Source of the DNA: Naegleria gruberi
Lineage: Eukaryota
Assembly: GCA_000004985.1 (NCBI GenBank)
Contig: GG738895.1
Direction: 5' to 3' (one strand)
Length of the DNA stretch: 64,000 bases
Shown here: positions 45,766-46,560 of the stretch, one piece after another
How the letters are laid out: each line of letters starts with the position of its first letter
How positions within the stretch are numbered: the first letter of the stretch is position 1
The notes under the pieces: generated by a model
What the model was told of the DNA's origin: nothing
Database searches by the model: none
What the model saw: the letters and a program-made list of their open reading frames with translations, nothing else
Translations under genes and position numbers: made by a program

Positions 45766-46560
45766 TTACAAATCTTCTAATAATATTGGATCTCTCAAAT
45801 GTTTTTGAATGAACAATTTGGTATCTCGATTTCTTGCACATCCAAAAATACAAATCTGAAGATTTAACTTTTTGGCAATTTTCACAATTTCCTCAACATG
45901 AGCTTGAAAACCATAATTTTGTACATGACTCATCTCCTCAACAATTAACATTTTCAAATATTTCACATTCAGAATATTGCTCTCTATCAAATCTAACAAT
46001 TTCACTGGCGTTCCCACAACTACATGTTGAATTTCTTGCAGAGCTAGCTCTGCAGACCGCATTTGACCTCCATATATCCCAAATACTTTGACACTCATAA
46101 ATTTCGCAAAGGATGCTATAATATGAGAGAGACTTATCGCCATTTCCCTGGTCGGTACAATCACCAATGCTTGAGGGGCACCTTTCGAATATAAATCATG
46201 ATTCAGATCAATTCTTTCAAGAAGGGCAAGTGAAAACCCAACTGTTTTACCAGTTCCAATTTTAGATGTGGACACAACATCAACTGGTGGATAGGATGAA
46301 ATAATTGGCATGATCAACTTTTTTTGCAATTCTGTCATTTCTTTTTTACCATCACTATAAAAACCAGAAAGTAAATTCGCGCGTAAATTTAAATCTTCAA
46401 AAGTTTCAATCTTTTTCATGTTGAATTTTGGTCGTGGAATTGTGATTTGTTTTTTGAAAAGTTTGATCAAGTGTGAAAATTCCGAATTTATATTCGAATT
46501 GCTGTGTATGTCTGTTAGAAGGAGGCGTGTAACACTTTCGTATGTTTCTGCTTGGTTCAT
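45766..46560 (-). CDS. eIF4A-like DEAD-box helicase domain 1 only, with degenerate catalytic motifs (pseudo-helicase, copy 2)
   Basis: This is a paralog of 33612..34388. Shared blocks are FNMKK..F.DL.LR..LL.G.Y, IMPIISS.PP.DVV, YSKGAPQALVI.PTREM, EIQHVVVGT, NLQIC.FG and DPI. Walker A is SKIGTGKT and DEAD is replaced by IVEE. It ends at the domain-1 boundary, with tRNA-Gly 335 nt downstream. Confidence 0.7.
   Translation of the reverse strand: MNQAETYESVTRLLLTDIHSNSNINSEFSHLIKLFKKQITIPRPKFNMKKIETFEDLNLRANLLSGFYSDGKKEMTELQKKLIMPIISSYPPVDVVSTSKIGTGKTVGFSLALLERIDLNHDLYSKGAPQALVIVPTREMAISLSHIIASFAKFMSVKVFGIYGGQMRSAELALQEIQHVVVGTPVKLLDLIESNILNVKYLKMLIVEEMSHVQNYGFQAHVEEIVKIAKKLNLQICIFGCARNRDTKLFIQKHLRDPILLEDL

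Follow-up and report, generated by a model that had tools for sequence, protein, structure and literature searches.

Within a 64,000-nucleotide stretch of the Naegleria gruberi genome (contig GG738895.1 of assembly GCA_000004985.1; the whole stretch is referred to here as the window), an uninterrupted open reading frame (ORF) of 264 codons runs at 45766..46560 (-) from an ATG to a stop at 45766-45768 and encodes a complete protein of 264 residues that amounts to a stand-alone eIF4A-type RecA1 domain (copy 2). A paralogous ORF, copy 1, encodes 258 residues plus a stop at 33612..34388 (+) and was the single paralog returned when the window was searched by tblastn with the copy 2 product. An earlier note, made from the letters of this DNA, had claimed the ORF at 45766..46560 as the second of two truncated helicase paralogs that share a series of sequence blocks and a common end point. 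The ORF is indeed present and intact, the two products are 49% identical over 241 residues (BLASTP, E = 9e-80), and every one of the blocks (FNMKK, IMPIISS.PP.DVV, YSKGAPQALVI.PTREM, EIQHVVVGT, NLQIC.FG and DPI) is found in the alignment of both copies. The end point is also shared, as both copies stop 5-6 residues past the 'DPI' strand within the linker between the RecA1 and RecA2 domains, where the C-terminus of copy 2 reads RDPILLEDL (45769..45795 (-)). Taken with the relatives described below, the two genes very probably represent a maintained, catalytically dead family of stand-alone eIF4A RecA1 domains.

Nothing of the second helicase domain accompanies either copy. Both match DEAD (PF00270; E = 1e-22 and 5e-20) as their only Pfam family, with no Helicase_C, and the C-terminal domain of eIF4A found no match better than E = 0.29 by tblastn against the whole 64 kb; the query in this search was human eIF4A1, and its N-terminal half matched both copies. 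The stop codon of copy 2 is followed after 335 nt by a tRNA-Gly gene and that of copy 1 after 295 nt by the ATG of an F-box/Ras-type gene, so that an exon for RecA2 would not fit downstream of either, and no trace of such an exon is left. The earlier note had raised the prospect that both might be fragments of recently disrupted full-length genes, a prospect that these observations contradict. A functional eIF4A has a two-domain core of ~400 residues, which binds eIF4G and alternates between open and closed conformations; the products here have 264 and 258 residues and one domain.

The truncated form extends beyond the window. When 1.84 billion representative proteins were searched exhaustively with a profile, a third single-domain relative emerged (P0122, 241 bits), which is NAEGRDRAFT_72190 and lies on the same scaffold outside the window, such that all three N. 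gruberi paralogs (NAEGRDRAFT_72146, 72139 and 72190, or copies 2, 1 and 3) sit on one 333,733-bp scaffold. A second, closely related strain of N. gruberi is represented by contigs in a metagenome (ERR1078381), and one of these (L001) carries copy 2 beside a tRNA-Gly gene and an SppA-type peptidase gene in the same arrangement, at 98.1% identity over 3.8 kb; the same 264-codon ORF, stop, downstream tRNA-Gly and SppA are present in two independent assemblies of this second strain. Copy 3, for which the DNA was taken from another contig of the sister strain (L003), is there an intact ORF of 270 codons, with 5/232 aligned residues differing between the strains. The sister genus also has RecA1-only proteins, with P0136/P0272 (235 aa) and P0280 (247 aa) found in Willaertia magna, and the 5 kb to each side of the gene for P0136 contain no RecA2-coding sequence. 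The third N. gruberi paralog and the two Willaertia proteins end at the same place as the window copies, which bears out the suggestion in the earlier note that the truncation predates the split of the two copies.

Each of the three N. gruberi copies has different neighbors, with no relationship among the flanking genes, and therefore only the gene itself was duplicated; the same observation speaks against duplication of a longer gene cassette. A search with copy 3 by itself recovered its own cluster alone. Among the other high-scoring proteins of the profile search, P0121 and P0123-P0131 were rejected as family members because they are long models in which eIF4A-like domains are repeated in tandem, each contributing to the summed score. 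P0121, which comes from the trematode Calicophoron daubneyi and has 1029 aa, contains 4 tandem, partly degenerate repeats resembling the eIF4A N-terminal domain, and P0124 (1675 aa) contains 7; both may be either fused tandem duplicates or true multi-RecA1 proteins. A giant-virus origin is not supported, as none of the 295 pattern matches in viral contigs proved to be a relative, and the scan of metagenome contigs gave generic DEAD-box genes alone (27-35% identity).

Motif calls were taken from a multi-sequence motif alignment of the single-domain proteins (half-helicases) with full-length eIF4As. Copy 2 keeps the glutamine of the Q motif (Q79, in GKKEMTELQ, 46324..46350 (-)) and its upstream aromatic residue (F54, 46390..46404 (-)), and both are kept in copy 1 too. 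Motif I (Walker A) reads SKIGTGKT (46243..46266 (-); canonical AQSGTGKT) with an intact GTGKT core, and is, as the earlier note had observed, nearer to canonical than that of copy 1, which reads SSSGTGKK (33897..33920 (+)). Motif Ia is kept as PTREMA (46138..46155 (-); PTREMS in copy 1, PTRELA canonically), as is the GG motif (46066..46074 (-)) in both copies. Two departures in length are apparent in the alignment: a 3-residue 'PP' insertion before motif I (SSYPPVD, 46279..46299 (-)) and a loop enlarged by five residues, with a proline, before motif Ia (LNHDLYSKGAP, 46174..46206 (-)).

The remaining motifs of the domain have decayed. Motif Ib is degraded from GTPGR to GTPVK in copy 2 (46000..46014 (-)), and copy 1 has T-NK for TPGR. 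At the position of motif II (DEAD) copy 2 has EEMS (45928..45939 (-)) and copy 1 has DRTG (34224..34235 (+)), and at the position of motif III (SAT) they have GCA (45835..45843 (-)) and GDS (34320..34328 (+)), respectively. The claim that DEAD was lost differently in each copy is thus correct, but the residues first assigned to it (IVEE and IIDR) both lie two residues too far upstream. An active DEAD-box helicase has two RecA domains together with intact D-E-A-D and S-A-T sequences, and neither copy has these; the RecA1 fold with Q motif, motif I and motif Ia is present in copy 2, and copy 1 has GTGKK. Across the five half-helicases motif II reads EEMS, DRTG, DEFE, DQLD and DQLD and none of them keeps motif III, so that selection on catalytic chemistry has evidently, to judge from these sequences, been absent from the time of the truncation onward. 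The P-loop lysine is retained in 5/5, with P-loop glycines substituted in copy 3 and P0280.

Several lines of evidence place the half-helicases within eIF4A by descent. A sequence search of the PDB ranked eIF4A-I N-terminal domains at 110 bits, ahead of DDX6 (92), eIF4A-III (87) and DDX19 (75), and residues 51-260 of copy 2 align to residues 13-215 of human eIF4A-I (E = 9e-31), the same N-terminal domain segment to which copy 1 aligns. Identity of the half-helicases to eIF4As is 31-36%. In a bootstrapped neighbor-joining tree they fall within eIF4A next to the eIF4As that carry the PP insertion, with DDX6, DDX19 and DeaD outside, although the deep nodes are weakly supported; the N. gruberi trio is recovered at 100%, copies 1 and 2 at 98% and the Willaertia pair at 100%. 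The rare 3-residue insertion (SSxPPxD) is common to all five half-helicases and to the full-length canonical eIF4As P0281-P0284, which argues that the half-helicases descend from an eIF4A of this PP type, presumably the heterolobosean eIF4A. Descent from DDX19/Dbp5, a subfamily that has a 'PP' insertion and a pre-Ia proline as well, was considered and rejected, because full-length eIF4As share the insertion and eIF4A scores much higher.

The enlargement of the loop before motif Ia (+5 to +10 residues, with the proline) is found in 5/5 half-helicases and in no full-length sequence of the alignment. Such a rare insertion common to all five speaks most strongly for one truncation event that predates the split of Naegleria and Willaertia, which is likely on these grounds but not proven. 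The half-helicases have diverged quickly, those of Naegleria and Willaertia being 32-35% identical, compared with 70-77% among the PP-type full-length eIF4As themselves. One of the latter, P0284 (L088, 4250..5545), is a full-length PP-insertion eIF4A paralog with degenerate RecA2 motifs (the ARGID region is replaced, and HRIGRSGHYG is present), and its neighbors are genes for ankyrin-repeat proteins. This protein could be an intermediate stage toward loss of the second domain.

The annotated products of these genes are probably too short. The GenBank model for copy 2 (NAEGRDRAFT_72146, 217 aa) covers residues 48-264 only, starting at an internal methionine (MKKIETF) and leaving an N-terminal extension of residues 1-47 (46420..46560 (-)) upstream of the annotated start codon. 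All three family models (GenBank/JGI; 217, 214 and 233 aa) begin at internal methionines, and the ORF of copy 1 (NAEGRDRAFT_72139, the 214-aa model) extends upstream of its annotated start in the same way (33612..33743 (+)). The longer ORFs are favored because paralog similarity (BLASTP, copy 2 against copy 1) begins at residue 23, upstream of the annotated start, because a block KKQ..PRPK[FY]NMK is conserved in 3/3 N. gruberi copies, because the upstream ATG of each copy stands in an aaaaaaATG context like that at the start of a neighboring gene, and because the second-strain ORF for copy 2 is likewise 264 codons. The true N-termini are thus more likely the longer ones, giving products of 264, 258 and 270 aa, and residues 1-47 of copy 2 are probably translated.

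The predicted structure is a confident RecA1 fold. An AlphaFold2 model of copy 2 has a mean predicted local distance difference test score (pLDDT) of 87.9, with values above 90 across residues 50-260 and two low-confidence helices (pLDDT 61-65) in residues 1-45, and Foldseek superposes the model on yeast and human eIF4A RecA1 structures with template modeling (TM) scores of 0.88-0.91 and the whole target covered. Coding potential calculated from codon usage is positive in frame 0 only and reaches a level comparable to that of neighboring genes.

The earlier note had held that the truncated form is maintained, and had named a ratio of non-synonymous to synonymous substitution rates (dN/dS) near 1 between the copies as the result that would speak against this. 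By the Nei-Gojobori method the two copies differ by dN = 0.445 and dS = 1.38, giving a dN/dS of 0.32 with a bootstrap 95% confidence interval (0.19-0.48) that excludes 1; by region the ratio is 0.31 in the N-terminal tail, 0.28 in the core and 0.40 in the C-terminal third, and other pairs, Willaertia included, give 0.30-0.53. A dS of ~1.4 is near saturation, and the comparison was therefore repeated against 400 neutral, stop-free simulations run to the same 40% nucleotide divergence, in which the uncorrected pN/pS averaged 0.97 and never fell under 0.73; the observed value of 0.54 is below all 400. When stops were allowed in the neutral simulation, both ORFs stayed open at 40% divergence in 0/2000 runs. 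The indels between copies 1 and 2 are all in frame, and stops, frameshifts and a nearby remnant of the missing part, by which a pseudogene might be recognized, are not found. With the intact ORF of the second strain, these results uphold the claim of maintenance, and long-term purifying selection is clear but moderate. By sequence and model the proteins fit the description of pseudoenzymes, in which catalytic residues are lost while fold and ORF remain under purifying selection.

There is reason to think that such proteins act in some way other than catalysis. ATP hydrolysis and RNA clamping in DEAD-box enzymes need the cleft between RecA1 and RecA2, and RecA2 supplies the arginine fingers of motif VI, motif V and half of the RNA-binding surface; within RecA1 the glutamate of motif II is the catalytic base and motif III couples ATP hydrolysis to unwinding. 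Because RecA2 is absent and motifs II and III have decayed, the proteins cannot, as far as their sequences tell, be ATP-driven helicases. Copies 2 and 3 retain two acidic residues at motif II, the lysine and threonine of the P-loop and the Q motif that reads the adenine, which makes nucleotide binding without turnover plausible for them, and copy 1 (GKK, DR) probably does without Mg-nucleotide binding. We infer action by binding. The explanation that best accounts for the whole, and that we hold to be probable, is that copy 2 belongs to a set of at least three RecA1-only eIF4A genes in N. gruberi with a non-catalytic, binding-based role. Loss of the entire RecA2 domain from a PP-type eIF4A would most likely have preceded the divergence of Naegleria and Willaertia, and single-gene duplications would then have spread copies along one N. 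gruberi scaffold, each adding a lineage-specific N-terminal tail of ~45 residues.

How such a protein might work can be suggested tentatively. The N-terminal domain of eIF4A is the main binding site of inhibitors with MA3 domains, PDCD4 among them, and a stand-alone copy of this domain could act as a mimic that competes for, or modulates, the factors that dock there (eIF4G, MA3-type regulators). This mechanism is possible, although the odds are against it in this specific form. A canonical eIF4A is present in N. gruberi in addition to the half-helicases (XP_002676412; PMC5862402 supplement), and eIF4G contacts both eIF4A domains (PMC3074137). If partners of eIF4A are in fact competed for, the family would constitute a new, genetically encoded regulation of cap-dependent initiation.

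A number of observations weigh against this interpretation. The principal eIF4G interface lies on the C-terminal domain of eIF4A, as in the yeast eIF4A-eIF4G structure, and is missing here, which weakens the idea of an eIF4G decoy. Orthologs from other Naegleria species (N. fowleri and N. lovaniensis among them) were not found in any of the searches, in which 50% clustering and a word index could miss one; the union of the Naegleria and Willaertia half-helicases has a bootstrap of only 34% and might reflect long-branch attraction; and the literature, searched by locus tags, UniProt ids, Naegleria eIF4A, pseudohelicases, truncated RecA1 and CMS1, yielded no description of these genes. The constraint is moderate over the long term, and between the N. 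gruberi strains copy 2 shows 4 synonymous and 6 non-synonymous differences (pN/pS 0.40, not significantly below neutrality, binomial p = 0.14), in contrast to the SppA gene next to it, where 7 are synonymous and 1 is non-synonymous. The sister-strain copy 2 also carries G165A in the GG motif, and homology between the strains stops 12 nt upstream of the copy 2 ATG, where a conserved promoter is not evident.

Together with the lost catalytic motifs, these inter-strain differences, the mutated GG motif and the unconserved upstream sequence are what might be expected of neutrally drifting pseudogene fragments whose ORFs are residual or whose function was recently lost. The short-term signal is too thin to judge by, and taken alone it is compatible with neutrality of copy 2 today. 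Over the longer term such drift is difficult to reconcile with the dN/dS and its interval, with a pN/pS under all neutral runs, with the failure of any simulated pair of ORFs to survive, with in-frame indels, frame-specific codon usage and a confident RecA1 model, and with five intact proteins in two genera that share one end boundary, and we regard it as improbable. An artefact of assembly or gene prediction is scarcely credible: the start codons of the GenBank models are questionable, but the ORF was read directly from the DNA and recurs with its stop, tRNA-Gly and SppA in both second-strain assemblies. That copy 2 largely retains the Q motif, the P-loop and motif Ia would be in keeping with a split helicase, whose RecA2 half, encoded by a separate gene or a distant exon, pairs with RecA1 to form an active enzyme. 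This too is very unlikely, as no RecA2 was found in the 64 kb or near the Willaertia gene, the next genes follow closely downstream, and an enzyme rebuilt in trans would need motifs II and III, which have decayed differently in each copy.

A role outside translation initiation deserves more weight, though we consider it doubtful. Under this explanation the genes are maintained and RecA1 serves as a nucleotide- or RNA-binding module or as a scaffold, for example in a fast-evolving role directed against pathogens, which would suit the rapid divergence relative to PP-type full-length eIF4As, the genus-specific duplicates with an N-terminal tail and loop insertion of their own, and a P-loop lysine that persists in all five proteins while catalytic residues vary. 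No particular process is indicated, however; the neighboring genes are unrelated, the viral contigs scanned yielded no relatives, and the P-loop glycines are substituted in copy 3 and P0280. On these data a role of this kind and the mimicry of the eIF4A N-terminal domain preferred above cannot be separated.

Some practical consequences follow for annotation. The sequences are public, as 'predicted protein' or 'ATP-dependent RNA helicase', and no account was found that recognizes the family as truncated and degenerate; the three N. gruberi UniProt entries that bear the latter label should not count as helicases, and their starts are probably mis-annotated. The DEAD-box protein is the textbook enzyme of two RecA domains, and a half kept so long under selection would be a natural single-domain pseudohelicase derived from a core translation factor, eIF4A.

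The window fits the N. gruberi genome in having 33% G+C and densely packed, mostly intron-free ORFs, among which six tRNA genes (Ala-TGC, Thr-AGT, Leu-CAA, Gly-GCC, Asn-GTT and Lys-CTT) are scattered singly at 11303..57395. Directly downstream of copy 1 is an ORF with an F-box and a Ras/Roc-type small GTPase domain (34684..35775 (+)). Near copy 2 lie tRNA-Gly(GCC) (45360..45430 (+)), in which 3/71 positions differ between the strains and which ARAGORN calls as tRNA-Gly in both, and a gene for an SppA-like S49 protein of signal-peptide-peptidase type (43214..45235 (+)) that is very strongly conserved between them, with a 0.4% difference in the coding sequence. Divergence between the strains is 1.3% in the copy 2 coding sequence and rises to 4.2% in the intergenic region 3' of it, and a 23-nt indel separates the strains at ~45757, directly after the copy 2 stop (relative to L001). 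On the other side of copy 2 an ORF of 193 aa (46552..47133 (+)) has no Pfam match and strong coding potential (+0.38 bits/codon), and is without a counterpart in the 146 nt available there in the second strain (L001 1..146 against 46561..46720), on which two assemblies agree. A structural variant may lie right at the presumed promoter of copy 2.

Comparison with known systems begins with canonical eIF4A-I (human eIF4A1, yeast Tif1/2 and N. gruberi XP_002676412), which gives the best sequence match among solved structures, agrees in RecA1 fold at the TM scores given above and forms the clade in which the half-helicases fall. Copy 2 has kept three of its features, namely motif Ia, the P-loop and the glutamine of the Q motif. 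Unlike it, the copies have no RecA2 and hence none of motifs IV, V and VI, copy 2 has EEMS, GCA and a degraded TPGR, and the half-helicases have the ~45-residue tail, the enlarged pre-Ia loop and a much faster rate of evolution. Engineered dominant-negative eIF4A mutants (in the DEAD or HRIGR motif), reportedly described by Pause and Sonenberg, are said to be catalytically dead and to occupy partners, and the DQLD of the Willaertia proteins resembles the classical DQAD mutant. Those mutants are full-length, however, and keep the C-terminal domain with the main eIF4G interface.

Among established non-catalytic relatives, Utp25 is a ribosome-biogenesis factor that retains a two-domain helicase-like core, unlike the present proteins, which are single-domain and eIF4A-derived. 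Utp25p is a component of the small-subunit (SSU) processome and a pseudohelicase (PMC9539457), and resembles the half-helicases in being DEAD-box-derived, in its degenerate helicase motifs and in being kept for a non-catalytic role. The CMS1/CMSS1 profile (PF14617) cross-matches the part of the DEAD RecA1 domain from motif Ia to motif II, and many DEAD-box proteins carry precomputed PF14617 matches; it scores 17.3 bits (E = 0.003) against the window proteins. With this score below the 35-bit gathering cutoff and with far closer similarity to eIF4A, membership in CMS1 was rejected. CMS1/CMSS1 is a small protein family with a single domain and offers a possible precedent for proteins built from half of a DEAD-like core.

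The closest parallels in form are other RecA1-only eIF4A-like ORFs (P0172, P0185, P0211 and P0162) that end in the same linker, several of them with degraded motifs II or III. Neither of the two heterolobosean insertions, PP before motif I and the enlarged loop before motif Ia, is present in them, and they should therefore have arisen independently. Completeness was checked for one of the four, P0185 (protist metagenome loci L005-L007, 5001..5681), which has ELAD for DEAD, has lost motif Ia, and lies ~800 nt upstream of a canonical eIF4A gene (6499..7677; 64% identical to human) whose product is its sister at 92% bootstrap. P0185 thus represents a partial tandem duplication, independent of the truncation in Naegleria and Willaertia, and is a plausible model for the origin of such genes. 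On this evidence RecA1-only eIF4A paralogs would have arisen at least twice, possibly four or more times. It would be a more speculative step, and an unlikely one, to regard them as recurrent protist regulators or decoys of initiation, with the present family, as a mimic of the eIF4A N-terminal domain, tuning eIF4F, which might serve transitions between amoeba, flagellate and cyst, or absorbing pathogen factors. If partners of eIF4A are indeed competed for, the truncations that occurred independently at the same linker in other protists would suggest that such a solution evolves easily.

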